DNA of 16,353 nucleotides. Origin: a virus (taxonomy: Duplodnaviria; Heunggongvirae; Uroviricota; Caudoviricetes). The stretch lies in the IMG/VR virus record IMGVR_UViG_2718218139_000006; one strand, 5' to 3'. Below, in pieces: positions 1 to 16,353 of this stretch; position 1 is the first letter of the stretch; each line of letters starts with the position of its first letter. The translations under genes and the position numbers were made by a program. The notes below the pieces were generated by a model, which did no database searches, had not been told where the DNA came from, and saw only the letters and a program-made list of their open reading frames with translations.

Positions 1-940
1 CTATGCTGTTTTGATATCTACGATAATCCAGTCTTTACCACGATCATCATTGTATCGGTCGGTCATTTTTCTGGATTTATGACCTAACAACTTTTGCGTA
101 TCCAGATCCTGTTCCCGATATAACCGTTCTGACAGAGATCGCTGCTCATGAAATGTGGGCGCAGTTCCTTGCTCCCATTTTATGCCACATTTTTCCCTGG
201 CCTTTTTAAAAGCCGTTGTAAGAGTATTTGCAGACACCTGGTCTCCTCTGTTTGCTTGAGAGGTAGTGTGACGGTAATGGACCAGATATTTACTAACAAC
301 AGCATCCCTGCACTGAGATATAACTTCACGAAGGGTAATATTCAGAGCATCGCATTTCAGGTTAAGCGGAATAGCAAGTTTTGAACCGGTTTTTTCCTGA
401 GTAATGTGCAACATGTCGTCCCAGATATCAGAGAATTTCAAATTGCAGATATCGCCTAAACGTTGTCCAGTGACAAGAGCAAGTAGCATCCCGCATTTTA
501 AATAGGGCTGCCGTCTGCTTACGCTGTCAAATATTGCCTGCCATTCGGACAGTGATAATCTTTGGCGGTTTACTCGATTTCGCGGTTGTTTTGTTGCCTG
601 CGCTGGGTTAAATCCTGGCGGAACATGTCCTGCGTGTTGTGCTTCTTTGAAGACGTCGATCAACACCATTCTCACGACTTGCGCCATCCTGTTATGACCT
701 TCAGCCTTTACAGCATCAATTATTTCGGCAATATCAAGTGCGGTAATATCCTTGTGGTGTTGCATTCCACAATGCTCACGGAAGAGACGAATGGGTTTGC
801 CTTTTTGCCGATAGGAGTTGGGTCTTAGTTCATTATGTTGCAGCCTGTCCTCCTGGATAGAAATATATTTATCAAGCCATTCTGTCACCGTAATGTCTGA
901 GCGCCTGCCTTTCATTCTTTCCAGACGCTCATTGACGCTT
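1..940 (-). pseudogene. int: Phage tyrosine integrase, 3' portion (312 codons plus stop), cut off from its 5' end by an IS insertion
   Basis: Translation ends ...LGHKSRKMTDRYNDDRGKDWIIVDIKTA, resembling the lambda Int C-terminus (HxxR...Y catalytic region). Stop codon at 1-3 (cta = TAG on minus). The frame continues into the IS end at 941; the Met at 970-972 in the ORF track lies inside the IS and is not the native start. Confidence 0.85.
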
Positions 941-983
941 TGAGGTGTACTGGCAATAGCGGACACTACCATTTGTTCTTTTT

Positions 984-1802
984 TTAAGCAGCCATCTGAT
1001 GATATTTTTCCCTGAAGGCTGCCGGGGAGATATTCCCCAGACGAGAGTGACGACGCTGACGATTGTAGAAAATCTCAATGTATTCCCGTATTACTGAGAT
1101 GGCTTCATCCCGGTTATTAAAACGATAGTGGCTCAGGCTCTCATTTTTCAGCGTTCCCCAGAAGCTTTCCATCGGAGCGTTGTCGTAACAGTTACCTTTA
1201 CGCGACATTGATGTTTTCAGACCAAACTGCTCCTGTATGACCCGGTAATCGTATGCGCAGTACTGTGAACCTCGATCAGAGTGGTGGATTAGCCCGGCAG
1301 GTGGGCGCTGGCTCCTGAGCGCCATAAACAGGGCTTTACCTGTCAGCTCTTTTGTCATGCGCTCTCCCATGGCGTAGCCGACAATTTCGCACGTATAAAC
1401 ATCTTTGATGCCAGCGAGGTACAACCATCCCTCCTGTGTGGCAACATACGTCAGGTCCGCCACCCAGACCTGATTTGGTGCTGTAGGAGCGAACGTCTGG
1501 TTCAGCAGATTTGGCGCAACTGGCAGATTGTGGTTCGAGTTCGTAGTCGCTCTGAACTTGCGTTTCTGCTTACAGCGTAGCCTTAGCTCCTTACGAAGAC
1601 GTGCCAGTCGGTCACGACCAACGATGATGCCATTCTCTGCCAGCTCCGTCTGGAGCCGCCGGGTTCCATATGTTTCGCGAGTGCGGATATGTGCCACCTT
1701 AATCTCCAGTTTTAGCCGCTCATCACTTTGTTTTCTGTCTGAGGGTTCATGCTGTACCCAGTTGTAATAACCGCTCCTGGATACACCAAATACCTGACAC
1801 AT
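984..1802 (-). CDS. IS3-family transposase OrfB (DDE/integrase catalytic domain), normally made as an OrfAB frameshift fusion
   Basis: 272-aa ORF with conserved IS3 OrfB motifs (WVADLTYV, HHSDRGSQY, CYDNAPMESFWGTLK). Lies in the -1 frame relative to orfA. Confidence 0.85.
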   Translation of the reverse strand: MCQVFGVSRSGYYNWVQHEPSDRKQSDERLKLEIKVAHIRTRETYGTRRLQTELAENGIIVGRDRLARLRKELRLRCKQKRKFRATTNSNHNLPVAPNLLNQTFAPTAPNQVWVADLTYVATQEGWLYLAGIKDVYTCEIVGYAMGERMTKELTGKALFMALRSQRPPAGLIHHSDRGSQYCAYDYRVIQEQFGLKTSMSRKGNCYDNAPMESFWGTLKNESLSHYRFNNRDEAISVIREYIEIFYNRQRRHSRLGNISPAAFREKYHQMAA

Positions 1803-1837
1803 CGCTTCAATGGGAAATTGTTGTCGCCATTGTTCGA

Positions 1838-2140
1838 TTAACGCGTATTTTTCAGCGACTCCTGTGCAAAATACGCTGTTGCTTTTTTTAATATATCTCG
1901 CTCAAGGCGAGCTTCATTTAACGCCTTACGCAGTTGCAGAATTTCAGATTCCAGTTCAGCCACCGTGCGGGAACCAGGAGTACCGAGCCCTTTTCTGGCG
2001 GCGGTAACCCATTGTCCTAAAGTGCCTTCAGGAAGAGATAATCGGGAAGCGCCTTCACTGATCGAAAGTTGATTTTCAAGAACCGTTCTGACAGCTTCGG
2101 CTTTGAACTCTTTAGAGTAACGTTGGGTTTTTCTGCTCAT
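1838..2140 (-). CDS. IS3-family transposase OrfA (HTH DNA-binding, leucine-zipper-like C-terminus)
   Basis: 100-aa ORF (MSRKTQRYSKEFKAEAVR...) typical of IS3-family OrfA. The slippery A-run sits near its 3' end. Start codon is about 60 bp inside the IS end. Confidence 0.85.
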   Translation of the reverse strand: MSRKTQRYSKEFKAEAVRTVLENQLSISEGASRLSLPEGTLGQWVTAARKGLGTPGSRTVAELESEILQLRKALNEARLERDILKKATAYFAQESLKNTR

Positions 2141-2207
2141 TATTAGCTCCTTCTGATGCCATTCTATTTCAGGAAGGAGTGTCCGTTAAACTCAGGCTAC
2201 CTCACTT

Positions 2208-2410
2208 AATATTTGTCGGGTACGTTGTTCAGCAATAATGGTATTTGCTTCAGTAGCAACCTGTTTTGCTTCATTCTCATCAGTTCCTAAACTATGAAAA
2301 CGACCGGATAGTGGATGTTTGTATTGCCAATATACCTTTCCGGTTCGCTTATCTAATTTGCAATATAAATTGGGTATAGAGATTTTGTGAGATCGGGGTC
2401 TAGCAGCCAT
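2208..2410 (-). pseudogene. int: Integrase 5' portion (N-terminal arm-type DNA-binding domain, 68 codons), separated from the rest by the IS
   Basis: MAARPRSHKISIPNLYCKLDKRTGKVYWQYKHPLSGRFHSLGTDENEAKQ... resembles lambda-type Int N-termini. The reading frame is continuous with the 1-940 fragment once 941-2207 (IS plus one CTT copy) is removed, giving a predicted 380-aa integrase. The int start overlaps the xis stop. Confidence 0.8.
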
Positions 2411-2636
2411 CAGCGATTATCCGTTGGAGTTTTGGGTTTGCGTTGATTGGGAGTTGCGGTTCTGCAAGCGTTCCTACAAAACGGGAATTTCGGTCAATCA
2501 TCCAGTAGCGACCAACTTTTATAGCGGGTGGGGCCATCATTTTCCCTTGCGCGTATTTTTTCAGAACTCGCTCACTTGGTGCTAAGTCCCCAAATTCTTC
2601 TTTAGCCCAGTCCTGTAAAGTGATTAGTCGAGACAT
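2400..2636 (-). CDS. xis: Excisionase (lambda Xis-like winged-helix)
   Basis: 78 aa; MSRLITLQDWAKEE...MMAPPAIKVGRYWMID aligns to lambda Xis motifs (LTLQEW, IFPPPVKDGREYLF). The 3' end overlaps the int start by 11 nt, the classic xis-int arrangement. Confidence 0.75.
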   Translation of the reverse strand: MSRLITLQDWAKEEFGDLAPSERVLKKYAQGKMMAPPAIKVGRYWMIDRNSRFVGTLAEPQLPINANPKLQRIIADGC

Positions 2637-2775
2637 TTGTCCTCCTCTTAGCTGCTGAGGGAGTTTGTGACCGATATATCTGACATGATATTAAGCTTAT
2701 GGCAGGTACATCTCTTGACTGGTCATAGAGATAAATTTAATGCTGAGAAATGCAGTATTGAATTTATCAATTTTT

Positions 2776-3015
2776 CTATTTCCTGCGTATGGCACGTAAC
2801 TTCTTAATGTGTTCTGCCGTTTCGATCTCTTCTGCTATCCGATCTGCATCAGCTTTATTCACAGGTTCAAAGTCATGATTAAAGCGGAACATGCTGGCGA
2901 TACATGTTCTGCCTTTTCGGATGTAGTGAACTTTGTTGTGGGTAGAACGCAGGATTTTGCAGGGAGTGCCGTGGTGATCGACGTACCAGGTGTTAGGAAA
3001 AATGATTCTGAACAT
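2776..3015 (-). CDS. Hypothetical small protein (79 aa) in the early-left operon position
   Basis: ATG ORF with a good Shine-Dalgarno (GAGGTG, 4-nt spacer before the ATG at 3015), co-oriented with xis/int. No family recognised. Confidence 0.5.
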   Translation of the reverse strand: MFRIIFPNTWYVDHHGTPCKILRSTHNKVHYIRKGRTCIASMFRFNHDFEPVNKADADRIAEEIETAEHIKKLRAIRRK

Positions 3016-3062
3016 TTTTACACCTCAATTGGACGATGTTGAAATTTGCTGCTTTGAGGCCA

Positions 3063-3281
3063 TCACAGTCCCCATTGTTTGTTCTTAAGTTCGATCTCCT
3101 CCTGGCAACTTGCACAAGTCCGACAACCCTGAACGGCCAGGCGTCTTCGTTCATCTATCGGATCGCCACACTCACAACAATGAGTGGCAGATATAGCCTG
3201 GTGGTTCAGGCGGCGCATTTTTATTGCTGTGTTGCGCTGTAATTCTTCAATTTCTGATGCTGAATCAATGATGTCTGCCAT
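3063..3281 (-). CDS. DksA/TraR-family C4 zinc-finger protein (phage TraR-like)
   Basis: 72 aa with CxxC-(17 aa)-CxxC (CECGDPIDERRRLAVQGCRTCASCQ) and size like TraR/lambda Orf73-type proteins. Same orientation as the xis/int operon. Confidence 0.65.
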   Translation of the reverse strand: MADIIDSASEIEELQRNTAIKMRRLNHQAISATHCCECGDPIDERRRLAVQGCRTCASCQEEIELKNKQWGL

Positions 3282-3330
3282 CTTTCATTAATCCCTGAAT
3301 TGTTGGTTAATACGCTTGAGGGTGAATGCG

Positions 3331-3356
3331 AATAATAAAAAAGGAGCCTGTAGCTC
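3331..3356 (-). terminator. Candidate intrinsic terminator on the minus strand
   Basis: Minus-strand hairpin GGAGC-TACAG-GCTCC followed by TTTTTTATTATT, just downstream of the 3380 stop. The stem is only 5 bp, so it is weak. Confidence 0.35.
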
Positions 3357-3379
3357 CATGATGATTTTGTTTTTCATGT

Positions 3380-3595
3380 TCACCGTTCCTTAAAGACGCC
3401 GTTTAACATGCCGATCGCCAGGCTTAAATGAGTCGGTGTGAATCCCATCAGCGTTACCGTTTCGCGGTGCTTCTTCAGTACGCTACGGCAAATGTCATCG
3501 ACGTTTTTATCCGGAAACTGCTGTCTGGCTTTTTTGATTTCATAATTAGCCTGACGGGCAATACTGCGAAGGGCGTTTTCTTGCTGAGGTGTCAT
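3380..3595 (-). CDS. Hypothetical small protein (71 aa from the ATG at 3595; an alternative upstream start at 3727 would give 115 aa)
   Basis: ORF MTPQQENALRSIARQANYEIKKARQQ... in early-left orientation, followed by the candidate terminator. Its 5' region overlaps the plus-strand Q-like ORF, so one of the two starts is probably wrong. Confidence 0.35.
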   Translation of the reverse strand: MTPQQENALRSIARQANYEIKKARQQFPDKNVDDICRSVLKKHRETVTLMGFTPTHLSLAIGMLNGVFKER

Positions 3596-4191
3596 TGAAC
3601 AAGTCCCATGTCGGCAAGCATACATACAAACGAAAGAAACCGCGCATTCTGGATGAAGTGACCGGCAGGTTAATAACGCTGGATAATCCGCCGATACCCG
3701 GTAAGCAGTCACGGGCGAAAGGCTCATCCATTGCCCTGGTCAGTCCGATCGAGTTCTCAACATCATCATGGCGCCGCGCGGTTCTGTCTCTCGAAGAACA
3801 TCAGAAAGCGTGGTTGCTGTGGAGTTACAGCGAAAGTGTTCGCTGGGAACATCAGGTCACCATAACGCAGTGGGCATGGAGCGAGTTTAAGACTCTGTTG
3901 GGTACCAGGAAAATTGCAGGTAAGACACTGGAACGTTTGAAGAAGTTGATCTGGCTGGCGGCACAGGATGTGAAGAACGAGCTGGCAGGGCGTAAGACCT
4001 ATGAATACCAGGAGTTGGCATCACTGGTGGGAGTGACATCAAAAAACTGGTCTGAGACATTTACTGAACGCTGGGTTGCAATGAAGCACATTTTTCTACA
4101 GCTTGATAGCCAAGCTTTATTGCTTTTAACGAAAACACGTTCAAAACAAAAGACCACATTTTCACAGCAAGATATTGCAAAACTGGATTAA
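3589..4191 (+). CDS. Putative late-gene regulator (Q-antiterminator-like by position), HTH-like segment near the C-terminus; start uncertain, possibly 5'-truncated
   Basis: 200-codon ORF immediately upstream of a terminator-rich leader and the lysis cassette, the canonical Q position. Contains an HTH-like stretch (YQELASLVGVTSKNWSETF). There is no in-frame ATG near the 5' end (only GTG/TTG candidates) and no recognised similarity to lambda Q. Confidence 0.35.
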   Translation: MSLNKSHVGKHTYKRKKPRILDEVTGRLITLDNPPIPGKQSRAKGSSIALVSPIEFSTSSWRRAVLSLEEHQKAWLLWSYSESVRWEHQVTITQWAWSEFKTLLGTRKIAGKTLERLKKLIWLAAQDVKNELAGRKTYEYQELASLVGVTSKNWSETFTERWVAMKHIFLQLDSQALLLLTKTRSKQKTTFSQQDIAKLD

Positions 4192-4260
4192 AAATCATAT
4201 ATTTTATGTAAATCTGATATTTTGCCAATGTTGTACGCACTGGCCGTAATCCAAATTCAA

Positions 4261-4296
4261 GCCCGAGGTTTAAAGCCTTGGGCTTTTCTGTTTCTG
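4261..4296 (+). terminator. Candidate intrinsic terminator / structured late-leader element
   Basis: Hairpin GCCCGAGG-tttaaag-CCTTGGGC (8 bp with one G-U pair) followed by a U-rich tract (ttttctgtttctg). Confidence 0.45.
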
Positions 4297-4372
4297 GGCG
4301 GTGAGTATCCTTCCAACGTACCCCAGCCAGGGTGTCTTCAGCTGTTGAGTTGATATTGCTTAACCCTCTGTT

Positions 4373-4398
4373 GCCAGCTACATGCTGGCTTTTTTATT
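4373..4398 (+). terminator. Candidate tR'-like intrinsic terminator between the Q-like gene and the lysis genes
   Basis: Hairpin GCCAGC-tacat-GCTGGC followed by TTTTTTATT. Confidence 0.55.
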
Positions 4399-4512
4399 CC
4401 AGGCTTGCGGGGAGCATCAACTCCGTGCTTTGTCGTTAAATTACCCCGTGAGCCTGATTTCTGACATTTAACGTCCCGGCCTTTTGTCGGCGGCGAAACA
4501 TTGGCTATTCAT

Positions 4513-4818
4513 ATGCACGAAAAAGAGAGCCTTGCCGGAGCGTTCTGGCTCGTTTTGCTGATCATCGCAGGTTGGGGCGGTCTGGTCCGCTACCTGATAG
4601 ATGTGAAGCAGAGTAAAGCAACGTGGAGCTGGATAAATGCTTTGGCTCAGATAGTGGTGTCGGGATTCACCGGTGTTATTGGTGGCCTGATCAGTATCGA
4701 AAGTGGATTCAGTATTTACATGATTCTCGCGACAGCGGGGATTAGTGGTGCGATGGGTTCGGTTGCACTGACATACTTCTGGGAACGACTGACAGGGGTG
4801 AAAAATGCAAAATCTTAA
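4513..4818 (+). CDS. Holin (not lambda S-like), about 101 aa from ATG 4513; the ORF track begins at TTG 4501
   Basis: Small protein with several hydrophobic transmembrane-like segments and a charged C-terminus, directly upstream of and overlapping the endolysin gene. Confidence 0.7.
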   Translation: MHEKESLAGAFWLVLLIIAGWGGLVRYLIDVKQSKATWSWINALAQIVVSGFTGVIGGLISIESGFSIYMILATAGISGAMGSVALTYFWERLTGVKNAKS

Positions 4819-5281
4819 TCCTCAGCGTAAAGCTTTCCTCGATATGGTGGCATGGTCAGAAGGAACGGATAACGGACGGCAGAAAACCAGAAATCATGGT
4901 TATGACGTCATTGTAGGCGGAGAGCTATTTACTGATTACTCCGATCACCCTCGCAAACTTGTCACGCTAAACCCCAAACTCAAATCAACAGCAGCCGGAC
5001 GTTATCAGCTTCTTTCACGCTGGTGGGATGCTTACCGTAAGCAGCTTGGCCTGAAAGACTTCTCCCCCAAAAGCCAGGACGCAGTGGCATTGCAGCAGAT
5101 TAAAGAACGTGGCGCTTTACCGATGATTGATCGCGGTGATATTCGTCAGGCAATTGACCGTTGCAGCAATATCTGGGCTTCACTGCCGGGCGCTGGTTAT
5201 GGTCAGTTCGAGCATAAGGCTGACAGCCTGATTGCAAAATTCAAAGAAGCTGGCGGAACGGTCAGAGAGATTGAGGTATGA
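4805..5281 (+). CDS. R: Endolysin R (lytic transglycosylase), lambda R homolog
   Basis: 158 aa; from residue 8 (QRKAFLDM...) onward matches lambda R as I recall it, while the first 7 residues differ. Confidence 0.9.
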
Positions 5282-5739
5282 GCAGAGTAACCGCGATTAT
5301 CTCCGCTCTGGTTATTTGCATCATCGTCTGCCTGTCTTGGGCTGTTAATCATTACCGTGATAACGCCATTACCTACAAGGCCCAGCGCGACAAAAATGCC
5401 AGAGAACTGAAGCTGGCGAACGCGGCAATTACTGACATGCAGATGCGTCAGCGTGATGTTGCTGCGCTCGATGCAAAATACACGAAGGAGTTAGCTGATG
5501 CTAAAGCTGAAAATGATGCTCTGCGTGATGATGTTGCCGCTGGTCGTCGTCGGTTGCACATCAAAGCAGTCTGTCAGTCAGTGCGTGAAGCCACCACCGC
5601 CTCCGGCGTGGATAATGCAGCCTCCCCCCGACTGGCAGACACCGCTGAACGGGATTATTTCACCCTCAGAGAGAGGCTGATCACTATGCAAAAACAACTG
5701 GAAGGAACCCAGAAGTATATTAATGAGCAGTGCAGATAG
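5278..5739 (+). CDS. Rz: Spanin inner-membrane subunit Rz
   Basis: 153 aa, [58 protein letters not shown]..., matching lambda Rz. ATGA start/stop overlap with R. Confidence 0.9.
5498..5680 (+). CDS. Rz1: Spanin outer-membrane lipoprotein subunit Rz1, embedded in the +1 frame of Rz
   Basis: 60 aa, [24 protein letters not shown]... with a lipobox (VVGC) and a proline-rich stretch, matching lambda Rz1. Confidence 0.85.
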
Positions 5740-5740
5740 A

Positions 5741-5762
5741 GTTGCCCATATCGATGGGCAAC
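5741..5762. terminator. Candidate bidirectional terminator hairpin between convergent Rz and bor
   Basis: Perfect 9-bp stem GTTGCCCAT-atcg-ATGGGCAAC lying exactly between the Rz stop (5739) and the bor stop (5771). Confidence 0.5.
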
Positions 5763-5770
5763 TCATGCAA

Positions 5771-6064
5771 TTATTGTGAGCAATACACACGCGCTTCCAG
5801 CGGAGTATAAATGCCTAAAGTAATAAAACCGAGCAATCCATTTACGAATGTTTGCTGGGTTTCTGTTTTAACAACATTTTCTGCGCCGCCACAAATTTTG
5901 GCTGCATCGACAGTTTTCTTCTGCCCAATTCCAGAGACGAAGAAATGGTGGGTGATGGTTTCCTTTGGTGTTACTGCTGCCGGTTTGTTTTGAACAGTAA
6001 ACGTCTGTTGGGCACATCCTGTAATAAGCAGGGCCAGCGCAGTAGCGAGTAGCATTTTTTTCAT
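5771..6064 (-). CDS. bor: Bor lipoprotein (serum-resistance-associated lysogenic conversion protein)
   Basis: 97 aa, MKKMLLATALALLITGCAQQ... with signal peptide and lipobox (LITGC); matches lambda Bor. Confidence 0.9.
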   Translation of the reverse strand: MKKMLLATALALLITGCAQQTFTVQNKPAAVTPKETITHHFFVSGIGQKKTVDAAKICGGAENVVKTETQQTFVNGLLGFITLGIYTPLEARVYCSQ

Positions 6065-6208
6065 GGTGTTATTCCCGATGCTTTTTAAAGTTCGCAGAAT
6101 CGTATGTGTAGAAAATTAAACAAACCCTAAACAAACCCTAAACAATGAGTTGAAATCTCATATTGTTAATATTTATTAATGTATGTCAGATGCGAAGGAT
6201 CGTCACTG

Positions 6209-6274
6209 TATTCCCGGATTAACTATGTCCGCAGCCCTGACAGGGAAACTCCTCTGCGGGAGTGTCCGGGAATA
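6209..6274. repeat. Nested dyad-symmetry element in the bor-downstream intergenic region
   Basis: Perfect 10-bp inverted repeat TATTCCCGGA (6209-6218) / TCCGGGAATA (6265-6274) enclosing an inner inverted repeat CCGCAG (6229-6234) / CTGCGG (6254-6259) and a central CCCTG-a-CAGGG. Confidence 0.6.
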
Positions 6275-6366
6275 ATTAATAACGATGCACACAGGGTTTA
6301 GCGCGTACACGTATTGCATTATGCCAACGCCCCGGTGCTGACACGGAAGAAACCGGACGTTATGAT

Positions 6367-6900
6367 TTAGCGTGGAAAGATTTGTGTAGTGTTCTGAATG
6401 CTCTCAGTAAATAGTAATGAATTATCAAAGGCATAGTAATATCTTTTATGTTCGTGGATATTTGTAACCCATCGGAAAACTCCTGCTTTAGCAAGATTTT
6501 CCCTGTATTGCTGAAATGTGATTTCTCTTGATTTCAACCTATCATAGGACGTTTCTATAAGATGCGTATTTCTTGAGAATTTAACATTTACAACCTTTTT
6601 AAGTCCTTTTATTAACACAGTGTTATCGTTTTCTAACACAATGTGAATATTATCTGTGGCTAGATAGTAAATATAATGTGAGACATTGTGACGTTTTAGT
6701 TCAGAATAAAACAATTCACAGTTTAAATCTTTTCGCACTTGATCGAATATTTCTTTAAAAATGGCAACCTGAGCCATTGGTAAAACCTTCCATGTGATAC
6801 GAGGGCGCGTAGTTTGCATTATCGTTTTTATTGTTTCAATCTGGTCTGACCTCTTTGTGTTTTGTTGATGATTTATGTCAAATATTAGGAATGTTTTCAA
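6367..6900 (-). CDS. Conserved lambdoid late-region hypothetical protein (at the position of the lambda ORF downstream of bor)
   Basis: 177-aa ORF co-oriented with bor. Its position relative to Rz/bor/cos matches an unnamed lambda ORF. Confidence 0.55.
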
Positions 6901-7062
6901 TTAATAGTATTGGTTGCGTAACAAAGTGCGGTCCTGCTGGCATTCTGGAGGGAAATACAACCGACAGATGTATGTAAGGCCAACGTGCTCAAATCTTCAT
7001 ACAGAAAGATTTGAAGTAATATTTTAACCGCTAGATGAAGAGCAAGCGCATGGAGCGACAAA

Positions 7063-7269
7063 ATGAATAAAGAACAATCTGCTGATGATCCCTCCGTGGA
7101 TCTGATTCGTGTAAAAAATATGCTTAATAGCACCATTTCTATGAGTTACCCTGATGTTGTAATTGCATGTATAGAACATAAGGTGTCTCTGGAAGCATTC
7201 AGGGTAATTGAGGCAGCGTTGGTGAAGCACGATAATAATATGAAGGATTATTCCCTGGTGGTTGACTGA
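7063..7269 (+). CDS. Small conserved lambdoid hypothetical protein (68 aa)
   Basis: ATG ORF at the position of a small lambda right-end ORF. Confidence 0.45.
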
Positions 7270-7433
7270 TCACCATAACTGCTAATCATTCAAACTACTT
7301 AACCTGTGACAGAGCCAACACGCAGTCTGTCACTGTCAGGAAAGTGGTAAAACTGCAACTCAATTACTGCAATGCCCTCGTAATTAAGTGAATTTACAAT
7401 ATCGTCCTGTTCGGAGGGAAGAACGCGGGATGT

Positions 7434-7628
7434 TCATTCTTCATCACTTTTAATTGATGTATATGCTCTCTTTTCTGACGTTAGCCTCCGACGGCAGGCT
7501 TCAATGACCCAGGCTGAGAAATTTCCGGACCCTTTTTGATCAAGAGCGATGTTAATTTGTTCAATCATTTGGTTAGGAAAGCGGATGTTGCGGGTTGTTG
7601 TTCTGCGGGTTCTGTTCTTCGTTGACAT
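7434..7628 (-). CDS. Small basic protein, YlcI/DUF3950-like, possible ribbon-helix-helix fold
   Basis: 64 aa, MSTKNRTRRTTTRNIRFPNQMIEQINIALDQKGSGNFSAWVIEACRRRL...; Arg-rich N-terminus followed by a beta-alpha-alpha-like pattern. Resembles the small protein found next to cos/nohD in DLP12-type prophages (from memory). Confidence 0.5.
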   Translation of the reverse strand: MSTKNRTRRTTTRNIRFPNQMIEQINIALDQKGSGNFSAWVIEACRRRLTSEKRAYTSIKSDEE

Positions 7629-7827
7629 GAGGTTGCCCCGTATTCAGTGTCGCTGATTTGTATTGTCTGAAGTTGTTTTTACGTTAAGTTGATGCGGATC
7701 AATTAATACGATACCTGCGTCATAATTGATTATTTGACGTGGTTTGATGGCGTAGATGCACGTTGTGACATGTAGATGATAATTATTATCATTTTGCGGG
7801 TCCTTTCCGGCGATCCGACAGGTTACG

Positions 7828-7839
7828 GGGCGGCGACCT
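7828..7839. other. cosN: the 12-nt lambda cohesive-end sequence GGGCGGCGACCT (terminase nicking site)
   Basis: Exact 12-mer, preceded by lambda right-end sequence (...TCCGACAGGTTACG) and followed by lambda left-end sequence (CGCGGGTTTTCGCTATTTATGAAAATTTTCCGG). Confidence 0.9.
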
Positions 7840-7875
7840 CGCGGGTTTTCGCTATTTATGAAAATTTTCCGGTTT

Positions 7876-7993
7876 AAGGTGTTTCCGTTCTTCTTCGTCG
7901 TAACTTAATGTTTTTATTTAAAATACCCCCTAAAAAGAAAGGAAACGACAGGTGCTGAAAGCGAGCTTTTTGGCCTCTGTCGTTTCCTTTCTC
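7876..7993 (+). promoter_or_regulatory. cosB: terminase small-subunit binding sites R3, R2, R1 with an intervening AT-rich IHF-type site (I1)
   Basis: Three copies of the CGTTTCC core: R3 about 7880-7895, R2 inverted about 7937-7952, R1 about 7975-7993, with an AT-rich segment at 7898-7927. Lies between cosN and nu1 as in lambda. Confidence 0.8.
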
Positions 7994-8016
7994 TGTTTTT
8001 GTCCGTGGAATGAACA

Positions 8017-8536
8017 ATGGAAGTCAACAAAAAGCAGCTGGCTGACATTTTCGGTTCGAGTATCCGTACCATTCAGAACTGGCAGGAACAGGGAATGCCC
8101 GTTCTGCGAGGCGGTGGCAAGGGTAATGAGGTGCTTTATGACTCTGCCGCCGTCATAAAATGGTATGCCGAAAGGGATGCTGAAATTGAGAACGAAAAGC
8201 TGCGCCGGGAGGTTGAAGAACTGCGGCAGGCCAGCGAGACAGATCTCCAGCCAGGGACTATTGAGTACGAACGCCATCGACTTACGCGTGCGCAGGCCGA
8301 CGCACAGGAGCTGAAAAATGCCAGAGACTCCGCTGAAGTGGTGGAAACCGCATTCTGTACTTTCGTGCTGTCGCGGATCGCAGGTGAAATTGCCAGTATT
8401 CTCGACGGGATCCCCCTGTCGGTGCAGCGGCGTTTTCCGGAACTGGAAAACCGACATGTTGATTTCCTGAAACGGGATATCATCAAAGCCATGAACAAAG
8501 CAGCCGCGCTGGATGAACTGATACCGGGGTTGCTGA

Positions 8537-8562
<26 letters not shown>
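8017..8562 (+). CDS. nu1: Terminase small subunit Nu1
   Basis: 181 aa, MEVNKKQLADIFGSSIRTIQNWQEQGMPVLRGGGKGNEVLYD..., matching lambda Nu1 (N-terminal winged HTH). Confidence 0.95.
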
Positions 8563-12056
<3,494 letters not shown>

Positions 12057-12060
12057 CGTC

Positions 12061-12636
12061 ATGTCAGAGCAGAAAAAGACCTGGGCGGCTGAAGACCAGC
12101 TTCGCGGGAGCTGGATGGCAGGCCTGAAGTCCGGCTGGAGTGAGTGGGAAGAGAGCGCCACGGACTGTATGTTGCAGGTAAAAAGTGCAGCCACGCAGAC
12201 CTTTGATGGTATTGCACAGAATATGGCGGCGATGCTGACCGGCAGTGAACAGAACTGGCGTAGCTTCACCCGTTCCGTGCTGTCCATGATGACAGAAATT
12301 CTGCTTAAGCAGGCAATGGTGGGGATTGTCGGGAGTATCGGCAGCGCCATTGGCGGGGCTGTTGGTGGCGGCGCATCCGCGTCAGGCGGTATGGCTTACA
12401 GCCGTGTGTCGACTTTCTCCGGGGATTATCTCCGCGTAACTGACAACAAGGGGAAAACGCACGACGTGCTGACCGGAAGTGATGACGGTCGCCACAGCAA
12501 CACGTCTCTGGCGTGGGGAGCTGGCGTGCAGTTTAACCCGACCGAATCCGTGGCCATTGATATTGCTTATGAAGGCTCCGGCAGTGGCGACTGGCGCACT
12601 GACGGTTTCATCGTGGGTGTCGGTTATAAGTTCTGA
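12061..12636 (+). pseudogene. Chimeric ORF: internal C-terminal segment of tail tape-measure H fused in frame to the C-terminal about 80 residues of outer-membrane protein Lom
   Basis: First 110 residues (MSEQKKTWAAEDQLRG...GGAVGGGASASGG) match the C-terminal region of lambda gpH; the remainder (...SLAWGAGVQFNPTESVAIDIAYEGSGSGDWRTDGFIVGVGYKF) is the Lom/Ail-family C-terminus. Junction near 12388-12393. Confidence 0.8.
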
Positions 12637-12663
12637 TTAGCCAGGTAACACAGTGTTATGACA

Positions 12664-12689
12664 GCCCGCCGGTTCAGGCGGGCTTTTTT
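12664..12689 (+). terminator. Intrinsic terminator downstream of the lom remnant
   Basis: 7-bp GC-rich stem GCCCGCC-ggttca-GGCGGGC followed by TTTTTT. Confidence 0.7.
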
Positions 12690-12700
12690 GTGGGGTGAAT

Positions 12701-15700
12701 ATGGCAGTAAAGATTTCAGGTGTACTGAAAGACGGCACAGGAAAACCGGTAGAGAACTGCACCATTCAACTGAAAGCCAGACGGACCAGCAGCACGGTGG
12801 TGGTGAACACGGTGGCCTCTGAAAATCCGGATGAAGCCGGTCGTTACAGCATGGACGTTGAGTACGGTCAGTACAGCGTCATTCTGTTGGTGGAAGGATT
12901 CCCGCCGTCACATGCCGGGACCATCACCGTGTATGAAGACTCACAACCGGGTACGCTGAATGATTTTCTTGGTGCCATGACGGAGGATGATGCCCGTCCG
13001 GAGGCACTGCGCCGTTTTGAGCTGATGGTGGAAGAGGTGGCGCGTAACGCGTCCGCGGTGGCACAAAACACGGCAGCCGCGAAGAAGTCAGCCGGCGATG
13101 CCAGCACATCTGCCAGTGAGGCGGCAACCCATGCGACTGATGCTGCAGGCTCAGCACGCGCAGCCAGCACGTCAGCCGGACAGGCCGCGTCGTCGGCTCA
13201 GTCAGCGTCTTCCAGCGCAGGAACGGCATCAACAAAGGCCACTGAAGCGGAAAAAAGTGCTGCCGCTGCAGAGTCCTCAAAAAGCGCGGCGGCCACCAGT
13301 GCCGGTGCGGCGAAAACGTCAGAAACGAATGCCGCAGCGTCACAACAATCAGCAGCCACTTCTGCATCCACCGCGACCACGAAAGCGTCAGAAGCTGCCA
13401 CCTCAGCCAGGGATGCGGCGGCCTCAAAAGAGGCAGCGAAATCATCAGAAACGAACGCATCCTCGAGCGCCAGTAGCGCAGCTTCCTCGGCAACGGCGGC
13501 AGGAAATTCCGCGAAGGCGGCAAAAACGTCCGAGACGAACGCTAAGTCTTCTGAGACGGCAGCGGAACAGAGTGCCTCCGCAGCAGCAGACTCAAAAACA
13601 GCGGCTGCATCATCTGCCAGCGCCGCGTCAACAAGTGCCGGGCAGGCCTCAGCCAGTGCCACCGCTGCCGGAAAGTCGGCAGAAAGTGCCGCATCGTCTG
13701 CTTCAACAGCCACAACGAAGGCTGGCGAAGCCACTGAACAGGCCAGCGCAGCAGCGAGTTCTGCTTCCGCAGCGAAGACATCCGAAACGAACGCGAAAGC
13801 GTCGGAAACCAGCGCAGAATCCTCAAAAACGGCTGCCGCATCGTCAGCCAGTTCGGCGGCGTCATCGGCATCATCTGCGTCTGCTTCAAAAGATGAGGCG
13901 ACCAGACAAGCGTCAGCAGCGAAGAGCAGCGCCACGACGGCATCCACGAAGGCGACAGAGGCAGCTGGCAGTGCGACGGCGGCAGCTCAGAGCAAAAGTA
14001 CGGCGGAATCCGCGGCAACGCGCGCCGAGACAGCAGCTAAACGGGCAGAGGATATTGCATCCGCCGTGGCGCTTGAGGATGCGAGCACGACGAAAAAGGG
14101 GATAGTACAGCTCAGCAGTGCGACCAACAGCACTTCCGAGTCACAGGCGGCAACGCCAAAAGCCGTTAAGGCCGCGTATGACCTGGCTAACGGGAAATAC
14201 ACCGCACAGGATGCAACGACAGCACAGAAAGGGATAATCCAGCTAAGCAGCGCGACCAACAGCACATCTGAAACGCTTGCCGCGACACCAAAGGCAGTAA
14301 AAACAGCCTATGACAATGCTGAGAAACGTCTGCAGAAAGATCAGAACGGTGCGGATATCCCTGGCAAAGACACCTTTACGAAAAATATTGGTGCCTGCCG
14401 TGCCTTCGGTGGGTCAGTAAGCACAATAACAGGAAACTGGACGACTGCACAGTTTATCGAGTGGCTGGATTCTCAGGGAGCATTTAACCATCCCTACTGG
14501 ATGTGCAAGGGTTCCTGGTCTTATGGCAATAATAAAATCATTACTGATACTGACTGCGGTAATATTCATCTCGCCGGAGCTGTCATTGAAGTAATGGGGA
14601 TAAAGTCAGCGATGACGATCCGCATTACCACACCGACCACCTCCACTGGTGGTGGAACAACTAACGCCCAGTTTACCTATATTAATCACGGAACAGATTA
14701 TTCACCTGGCTGGCGAAGGGACTATAACTCCAGAAATAAGCCAACGGCATCAGAGATCGGGGCGTTACCGTCAGGTGGAACAGCAGTATCATCAGTTAAT
14801 CTGGCTTCAAAAGGTCGGGTAACCGCGCTGACAGACAATACGCAGGGGGCAACAGGTCTTGAGTTATACGAGGTGTATAACAACGGATATCCAACAGCGT
14901 ATGGAAATATCATTCACCTGAAAGGGATGACAGCCGTTGGCGAAGGTGAGTTACTCATCGGCTGGAGTGGTACAAGCGGTGCTCATGCTCCGGCATTTAT
15001 TCGTTCACGACGGGATACGACCGACGCAAACTGGTCGCCGTGGGCGCAGCTTTACACCTCGGCTCATCCTCCTGCAGAGTTTTATCCAGTCGGTGCACCA
15101 ATCCCGTGGCCATCAGATACCGTTCCGTCTGGTTATGCCCTGATGCAGGGGCAGACTTTTGACAAATCTGCCTACCCGAAACTTGCAGCGGCTTATCCGT
15201 CAGGCGTGATCCCTGATATGCGTGGCTGGACGATTAAGGGCAAACCTGCCAGTGGTCGGGCCGTATTGTCTCAGGAACAGGACGGCATTAAATCGCATAC
15301 CCACAGCGCCAGCGCATCCAGTACGGATTTGGGGACGAAAACCACATCGTCGTTTGATTACGGCACTAAATCCACGAATAACACTGGTGCGCATACCCAT
15401 AGTTTAAGTGGCAGCACGAATGCAGCTGGTAATCACAGCCATAGAGATGGCCGTCGATTTAACCCCAGTGTTTTTAAAGATACTTATCAATATGGTTATA
15501 CAAGCTCAGGTCAAAATACCTGGGGTGTACAAGGCTCAGTAGGTATGTCTACGGGGTGGTTAGCTAATACCAGTACAGATGGTAATCATAGCCACTCACT
15601 GTCCGGCACAGCAGCATCTGCAGGTGCACACGCGCATACTGTCGGTATTGGTGCTCATACGCACTCCGTTGCGATTGGTTCACATGGACACACCATCACC

Positions 15701-15772
15701 GTTAACGCTGCTGGTAACGCGGAAAACACCGTCAAAAACATCGCATTTAACTATATTGTGAGGCTTGCATAA
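12701..15772 (+). CDS. stf: Side tail fibre protein Stf (about 1023 aa from ATG 12701), apparently full length
   Basis: N-terminus [17 protein letters not shown]...; long Ala/Ser/Thr-rich repetitive shaft; two copies of the tail-fibre repeat (G-I-[VI][11 protein letters not shown]...ATPKAVK); His-rich C-terminal tip with repeated HxH motifs ([46 protein letters not shown]), ending ...[11 protein letters not shown] as in lambda Stf / T4 gp37-type fibres. Confidence 0.9.
13080..14060 (+). repeat. Low-complexity GC-rich coding repeat region inside stf (Ala/Ser/Thr-rich shaft)
   Basis: Reiterated motifs such as AKTSETNA, SSASxASTxAxxA; this region generates long artefactual ORFs in the other five frames. 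Confidence 0.8.
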
Positions 15773-16353
15773 TGGCATTCAGAATGAGTGAACAACCACG
15801 GACCATAAAAATTTATAATCTGCTGGCCGGAACTAATGAATTTATTGGTGAAGGTGACGCATATATTCCGCCTCATACAGGTCTGCCAGCAAACAGTACC
15901 GATATTGCACCACCAGATATTCCTGCTGGCTTTGTGGCTGTTTTCAACAGTGATGAGGCATCGTGGCATCTCGTTGAAGACCATCGGGGTAAAACGGTTT
16001 ATGACGTAGCGTCAGGGGACGCGTTATTTATTTCTGAACTCGGTCCGTTACCGGAAAATGTTACCTGGTTATCGCCGGAAGGGGAGTTTCAGAAGTGGAA
16101 CGGCACAGCCTGGGTGAAAGATGCAGAAGCAGAAAAACTGTTCCGGATCCGGGAGGCGGAAGAAACAAAAAACAGCCTGATGCAGGTAGCCAGTGAGCAT
16201 ATTGCGCCACTTCAGGATGCTGTAGATCTGGAGATCGCAACGGAGGAAGAAAACTCGTTGCTGGAAGCCTGGAAGAAGTATCGGGTGTTGCTGAACCGTG
16301 TTGATACATCAACTGCACCTGATATTGAGTGGCCTGTAATACCAGAAGTTTAA
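15772..16353 (+). CDS. tfa: Tail fibre assembly protein Tfa (chaperone)
   Basis: 193 aa, [79 protein letters not shown]..., matching lambda Tfa. TAATG overlap with the stf stop. Confidence 0.9.

Follow-up and report, generated by a model that had tools for sequence, protein, structure and literature searches.

An apparently competent lambda-type cos site in a decayed lambda-like prophage at icd of Escherichia coli

Can a chromosomal cos site that stands beside full-length terminase genes, in a prophage without capsid genes, still serve a terminase, and would its use launch packaging of the host DNA next to it? We addressed this question for a stretch of viral DNA of 16,353 nucleotides (IMG/VR record IMGVR_UViG_2718218139_000006), which we call the window and whose two ends coincide exactly with stop codons, that of an integrase gene and that of a tail-fibre assembly gene. 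An exact match to the hybrid int ORF placed the window on the source contig, PVZZ01000002.1 (GCA_003015365.1), and positions 5772-16353 were matched there at 100%. The top complete genome was that of E. coli 2014C-3011 (NZ_CP027591.1; 88% coverage, 99.7% identity), where what we refer to as the sister copy lies directly after icd.

The window holds a lambda-like remnant with the order int'-xis ... Q'-lysis-bor-cos-nu1-A-W-B'-H'::lom'-stf-tfa (Table 1). In a BLAST map, positions 4810-7827 corresponded to lambda 45500-48502 and positions 7828-12038 to lambda 1-4212, the latter at 98.3% identity; beyond lambda 4212, the homology jumped to lambda 12351-12705 and then to ~19458 onward. On the xis side, the window exceeds the sister copy by 733 bp (2681-3413), and an 11-bp indel (TAAACAAACCC) separates the two elements in the bor-DUF1398 intergenic region (6117-6127). 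The sole Rfam match, IS009 (RF02111; 16115-16313, + strand, 227.9 bits, full model), falls within the tfa coding region and is unrelated to cos.

Table 1. Features of the remnant prophage in window coordinates
Feature	Position	Strand	Remarks
int'	1-940 and 2205-2410		Split by IS600
IS600 in int	941-2204 (1264 bp)	-	100% identical to annotated IS600 copies; 3-bp target duplication
xis	2400-2636		
DUF4222, TraR-like, ea22-side remnant	up to ~3622		
Q (antiterminator)	3589-4191	+	Lacks ~33 N-terminal residues; Pfam Phage_antiter_Q profile positions 34-217 of 220
Late-promoter-like site, then terminator-like hairpin with 12-bp stem	4175-4203, then 4259-4285	+	Consensus scan only
Holin, endolysin, Rz	4501-5739		
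bor	5771-6064		
DUF1398 and small ORFs	~6367-7628		
cos	7798-7992		
cosQ (GGGTCCT), packaging-termination subsite	7798-7804 (lambda 48473-48479)	+	Exact match
cosN, cohesive-end 12-mer GGGCGGCGACCT	7828-7839	+	Exact
cosB R3, critical TerS binding site	7877-7892 (lambda 50-65)	+	One change, C53T at 7880
I1, IHF-binding core (consensus-like) with A/T tract	7901-7918	-	WATCAANNNNTTR at 1-2 mismatches; same as lambda
cosB R2, inverted	7936-7951 (lambda 109-124)	-	16-mer CTGTCGTTTCCTTTCT identical to lambda
cosB R1	7977-7992 (lambda 151-166)	+	16-mer CTGTCGTTTCCTTTCT identical to lambda
nu1 (TerS)	8017-8562	+	181 aa; Pfam Phage_Nu1 at 7.5e-101
A (TerL)	8537-10462	+	641 aa; Pfam GpA_ATPase and GpA_nuclease
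W	10459-10665	+	68 aa; Pfam gpW; protein identical to lambda
Portal B pseudogene	10662-12038	+	E313* (GAA>TAA, 11598-11600); homology ends at lambda 4212
Deletion scar, H C terminus fused to lom C terminus	12061-12636	+	Tape_meas_lam_C and Ail_Lom; BLAST map
stf (side tail fibre) and tfa (tail-fibre assembly)	12695-16353	+	

Both the position of the element and its losses identify it as a cryptic lambdoid prophage. Its integrase gene abuts icd, host genes flank the element, and in the sister genome a duplicate of the icd 3′ part (icdC) marks the far end. The essential modules are gone: head genes, tail shaft and tip genes and the immunity and replication region were all missing. By the BLAST map, one deletion joins lambda 4212 to 12351 and another joins ~12705 to 19458; together they remove C, nu3, D, E, FI, FII, Z, U, V, G and T, as well as M, L, K, I and J, the greater part of H and the 5′ end of lom. 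The preliminary description of this DNA had stated that every capsid gene is deleted and that the portal is a pseudogene, and both statements were borne out by the gap between lambda 4212 and 12351 and by the state of B, which in addition to its premature stop codon is truncated at the 3′ end, with the last ~75 codons gone. RefSeq likewise annotates B of the sister copy as a pseudogene. The two deletions have also made an open chimeric ORF of 191 aa (12061-12636), in which the C-terminal domain of the tape-measure protein is joined to the C-terminal half of the Lom beta-barrel.

On the xis side, phage homology stops at 3622. The whole early, immunity and replication region is missing there, with the junction to Q at ~3622, and in the sister copy RefSeq annotates Q as "missing N-terminus." The IS600 insertion was mapped against the uninterrupted int of the sister copy (L001). 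With int split, the early and replication region gone and Q lacking its N terminus, the element is unable to move alone. We note that the source genome carries two identical IS600 copies in the island, the second of which splits an Mn-catalase gene just downstream of tfa (L018 11102-12365). Both insertions were absent from five sister genomes, and a scan of species-representative genomes gave no exact match to the IS600/int junction.

The late-promoter-like site and the hairpin behind it (4175-4285) form a predicted pR'/tR'-like layout upstream of the lysis and terminase genes. Between 3400 and 4560, we counted 7 terminator-like hairpins against 1.0 expected, the 4259-4285 stem among them. In the sister genome, the island continues for ~15 kb past tfa to icdC (L014 38674-38841, 46111-46323) and carries stress genes, Mn catalase, ferritin-like genes, ompT, ISEc8 and a second tfa fragment, and this second fragment together with the cargo suggests remnants of more than one element.

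We then compared cos with that of lambda, setting window position 7828 equal to lambda bp 1 and using the subsite definitions of Feiss and colleagues (PMC9026076, PMC4669245). According to these, cosQ is a highly conserved 7-mer, the spacing between cosN and cosB is critical, R2 and R1 share a 16-mer, and R3 occupies bp 50-65, of which 55-63 make contacts seen by NMR and 56, 58 and 59 are functional base pairs (PMC9026076, PMC4669245). cosQ lies 23 bp before cosN, which is the lambda spacing. The 12-mer of cosN, reported previously as exact, proved so and was the single match in the window at ≤1 mismatch; it stands in a segment (7812-7879, lambda 48487 to 52) that is 100% identical to lambda, conserved flanks included. 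The gap between cosN and R3 is 37 bp, as in lambda, and R3 is identical to lambda over bp 54-65. Behind it, the sites follow in the order R3-I1-R2-R1, with R2 inverted and with lambda-type R sequences. The cosB sites named in the preliminary description are thus all present: R2 and R1 are identical to those of lambda and the I1 core is unchanged, and R3 carries a single change. Compared with lambda cos (PMC9026076), the site of the window is the same in order, orientation and spacing and identical in cosQ, cosN, R2, R1 and the R3 contact segment; it differs in nine small ways, all outside known critical positions.

Five of the nine differences from the lambda reference lie in cosB and four on the cosQ side. 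To judge them against wild phages, we aligned nine lambda-like phage records (PhiR68_2, Kati, Turner, 2H10, PhiR11_1, ev099, 2E9, PhiR29_1 and Stx1_112808). The cosQ-side differences are 48459 C>T, 48467 C>T, 48471 A>G and 48486 T>C, and all four alleles were present in each of the phages aligned over that part (5/5). The differences in cosB are C53T at the fourth base of R3, A73G (7900), T102C (7929), G105A (7932) and a deletion of G138. T53 was found in ev099, 2E9, 2H10, PhiR29_1 and Stx1_112808, and it co-occurred with G73 and C102 in ev099, 2E9, PhiR29_1 and Stx1_112808; it touches neither the segment of NMR contacts (55-63) nor the functional bp 56, 58 and 59. A73G, T102C and G105A flank the I1 core and lie outside it. 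In all, eight of the nine differences are common alleles of wild lambda-like phages, with G105A as the exception, and none of the nine falls on a base pair known to matter. A by-product of these alignments is a base-by-base map of the positions in the lambda-reference cos that vary among wild phages. One record, LR597635.1 (phage ev099, L009 1-33), begins with 33 nt of a Nextera transposase adapter (TCGTCGGCAGCGTCAGATGTGTATAAGAGACAG), which replaces the left cohesive end and ~40 bp of cos and is an assembly artefact in the deposited genome.

The G138 deletion, located after window position 7964, makes the R2-R1 spacer 1 bp shorter than in lambda. It corresponds to the single-base difference in the R2-R1 hairpin that had been noted earlier: the difference exists, as a 1-bp deletion, but it is one of nine and not the sole one. 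The deletion weakens the 6-bp hairpin between R2 and R1 from -5.4 kcal/mol in lambda to -1.2 kcal/mol, and it was seen in all nine non-reference phages aligned. The stem is therefore a peculiarity of the lambda reference and not a conserved element, and we ruled out the hairpin as a functional element.

Might cos be intact in appearance only? If G105A, possibly together with C53T, impaired the IHF- or Nu1-dependent assembly, the site would be a dead relic. G105A was absent from all 80 matching phage records and occurred, among 5426 complete E. coli genomes, in only the five that carry the same element; the exact cosB sequence was found in no phage record, the best matches being 1-2 mismatches off, and C53T alters the C of the CGTTTCC core common to R1, R2 and R3 in lambda. 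Against these points, bp 105 belongs neither to R2 (109-124), from which it is 4 bp away, nor to the IHF-like core, and no known defect maps there; the known defects are at bp 56, 58 and 59 or in the cosN-cosB spacing (PMC9026076). T53 is carried by at least five phage records. Moreover, R1 and I1 are accessory, and even a bp 58 mutant is merely IHF dependent (PMC4669245). Among prophages with a full set of head genes, the nearest cos differs from that of the window at 2 of 271 positions, 7932 and 8056, the latter corresponding to Nu1 A14S. We consider a dead site unlikely. As judged from its sequence, cos is of lambda specificity and competent, and it comprises both the site at which packaging begins (cosN plus cosB) and the termination subsite (cosQ). 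Since it has this specificity and no known inactivating change, it should be a substrate for binding and nicking by a lambda-specificity terminase provided in trans (7798-7992).

The terminase genes were examined in the same way. nu1, A and W had been described as full length, and we found them so, each with its Pfam match. Nu1 differs from lambda by A14S, A75T and L132I. At positions 75 and 132, the residues of the window (T75, I132) are those in the majority among 120 cluster representatives. At position 14, the 116 of the 120 representatives with an aligned residue carried alanine (80), valine (30) or cysteine (6), and none carried serine. This residue is in the turn of the helix-turn-helix, just before the recognition helix 17-24 (PMC9026076), and since S14 occupies a position otherwise held by A, V or C, the resident TerS may be impaired. 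S14 is common to the sister copy and a differently deleted sibling (L019) and is probably older than the deletions. The sister copy's nu1 bears the RefSeq name "nohD." gpA differs from lambda by 27 nucleotides and one amino acid, T151S, which is also carried by the prophage with full head genes, so that gpA of the window has no private amino acid change. A of the sister copy has 7 differences, 3 nonsynonymous (G49E, S192L, A622V) and 4 synonymous, which hints at relaxed constraint in numbers too small to decide. Private substitutions across the window, the sister copy, the intact prophage and lambda (3 versus 6 private sites) were likewise too few events to separate drift from constraint.

Taken together, the anatomy of the element, the sequence identity of cos to lambda, the alleles that cos shares with isolated phages and the lack of a downstream cos (see below) support a reading to which we give a probability of roughly 80%: the element is a decayed lambda-like prophage at icd whose sequence-competent cos survives by virtue of where the deletions fell and leads at most to abortive packaging. 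From the established lambda pathway (PMC4669245), we infer cleavage, recombination and abortive packaging at this site. In the presence of a lambda-specificity terminase, assembly of Nu1 and IHF would take place on R3-I1-R2, with gpA introducing nicks into cosN at 7827/7828 and 7839/7840. The enzyme could be that of an infecting or co-resident phage; it could also be made from the resident nu1 and A, provided that the late promoter is activated in trans by a compatible Q; since the element's Q is truncated, expression of the resident genes would presumably depend on such a Q. Lambda-type cos with the start of nu1 was found in 3995 of the 5426 complete E. coli genomes (median 2 copies, maximum 8), and because the closest complete genome, that of the sister copy, has three lambda-type cos places, co-resident sources of terminase are plausible. 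After nicking, terminase would remain on the nu1 side of cosN as Complex I. The resulting double-strand break in the chromosome would stimulate recombination with homologous phage DNA, giving marker rescue and mosaicism, for which DLP12 of K-12 offers a precedent (see below). At most, DNA would be translocated rightward from the break into helper proheads, taking in nu1-A-W, the tail-fibre genes and the island cargo and continuing into host genes beyond icdC.

Whether such translocation could yield transducing particles depends on a second cos. Release of the filled head and termination of packaging need a cosQ and a cosN downstream, in a second cos one head length away (PMC4669245; PMC6687093). 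At ≤1 mismatch, no second cosN was found in the rest of the window, and none was found 8.5-58.5 kb downstream of cosN in NZ_CP027591.1, a 99.7%-identical relative and not the source genome; in the source contig, the 10 kb beyond tfa held no further exact cosN. Since no second cos was found within head-length distance in these stretches, the head could not be cut free, and mature transducing particles are not expected. The expected outcomes are a double-strand break at cos and unfinished heads.

The preliminary description had gone further, proposing that the chromosomal cos is a substrate from which terminase could launch packaging of host DNA, to be seen in the transduction of flanking markers. 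The idea is not new and goes back to Sternberg and Weisberg in 1975 (Nature 256:97, cited in PMC8008629). In their system, packaging of an unexcised prophage, a single chromosomal cos is said to have been used in situ, with heads filled rightward by prophage and then host DNA. There, a full, replicating prophage reportedly supplied both heads and terminase, whereas the element in the window would need a helper for everything except possibly terminase. For infectious transducing particles to arise here by a cos-driven lateral transduction, in which helper terminase packs the adjacent host DNA, the competent sequence of cos, its rightward orientation toward tfa, the island cargo and host genes, and the three cos places of the sister genome are favorable circumstances. 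However, the terminal cut by cos terminases needs a second cos, and protruding uncut DNA blocks tail joining (PMC6687093); no cosN was present in the downstream interval searched in the closest complete genome. Furthermore, the element is without a replication module to amplify the template, and lateral transduction is not done by cos phages according to the literature (PMC12829572); reviews exclude generalized as well as lateral transduction by cos phages, as two cos sites are required (PMC6687093, PMC12829572). As a platform for lateral transduction, which works by a headful pac terminase with no requirement for a second site and by in situ replication before excision, the element was rejected: its terminase is of the cos type (GpA/Nu1) and it has no replication module. 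Hence, the site is a plausible terminase substrate on sequence, but productive packaging and the transduction of flanking markers find no support, and we think it quite improbable that such particles form.

Why, then, is the cos-terminase block still there? Sibling elements at the same icd locus bear on this point and form a decay series of one element, a by-product of the comparison. One of them (L017) has a complete tail module, with full H-M-L-K-I-J-lom. Two others (L019 and L020, at ~3540-5200) retain cos, nu1 and the 5′ portion of A, whereas the remainder of A, along with W and B, is gone; their homology ends at window position 9413 and is followed by K-I-stf-tfa. L020 has small indels in the I1 region, and cos alleles are mosaic between copies. 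In the protein database, we also observed many ORFs in which the N-terminal ~170 residues of Nu1 are fused to Lom, FI, gpU, integrase, major capsid or portal domains (P0012-P0069); such ORFs are scars of deletions that have recurred in E. coli prophages and left cos and the beginning of nu1 in place.

Our preferred reading, a decayed prophage, is that the deletions chanced to begin downstream of the block and so spared it, and not that it is maintained. It had been described earlier as kept, and retention by selection, whether as a helper-dependent satellite or as a decoy cos or resident terminase against invading lambda-like phages, would be in keeping with a gpA free of private changes, with a late-operon regulatory layout that seems preserved in its consensus matches and with the wide recurrence of cos-nu1 remnants. 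Opposed to it are the lack of a replication module, an int split by IS600, the lack of an rpp-like gene, because nu1 itself follows cos, the loss of the region from the 3′ part of A through B in L019 and L020, and the nonsynonymous changes in A of the sister copy (3 of 7). In addition, the sister island from icd to icdC measures ~25.6 kb, and the packaging range of lambda is roughly 36-51 kb, so that the island falls below it. Selection for the block is thus very improbable. We give equally little credence to its more specific form, in which the intact cos and nu1-A-W behind a Q-dependent late promoter make up a selected, helper-activated module for a decoy cos, abortive-infection-like cleavage or cargo capture; if it were true, Q from a co-resident or invading lambda-like phage would switch on terminase and expose the decoy cos, and the invader's packaging would be titrated or misdirected, the chromosome would be cleaved in an abortive-infection-like way or, alternatively, island cargo would be captured into the invading phage by recombination.

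Known systems place the element more closely. Gram-negative cos-type PICIs (EcCICFT073-like, Rpp dependent) are also chromosomal, have a lambda-like cosN and exploit helper capsids (PMC9026076, PMC6739421). They have int, replication and rpp genes of their own and a cosB that is not of the lambda type, and they lack terminase genes, whereas the element in the window has a lambda cosB, nu1 and A, a broken int and neither rpp nor a replication module; primase, replication and rpp genes were absent among the ORFs and Pfam matches of the window. Membership in the PICIs or other satellites was therefore rejected on gene content, with nu1 and A following cos and int disrupted. The closer likeness is to DLP12 (qsr') of K-12 with its nohD/A' remnant, likewise a capsid-less lambdoid remnant with lysis genes, bor, a lambda-type cos and a Nu1 homologue, and Qin with nohA is similar to DLP12. 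Unlike DLP12, the element is located at icd and not at the DLP12 site, keeps full-length A and W beside nu1, differs in its Q and holin module, and has an int that IS600 has split. DLP12 of K-12 shares R-Rz-cos-nu1-A with lambda, its nu1, R and Rz are functional in lambda, and half of the lambda-DLP12 recombination junctions adjoin cos (PMC3945230).

The situation is thus already known from DLP12 and Qin, and the element is an ordinary decayed prophage of that type. By itself the finding matters little, as it adds one more cryptic prophage to those that serve as reservoirs of packaging signals and genes in working order. Recombination of incoming lambda-like phages with such reservoirs is an accepted route to phage mosaicism.
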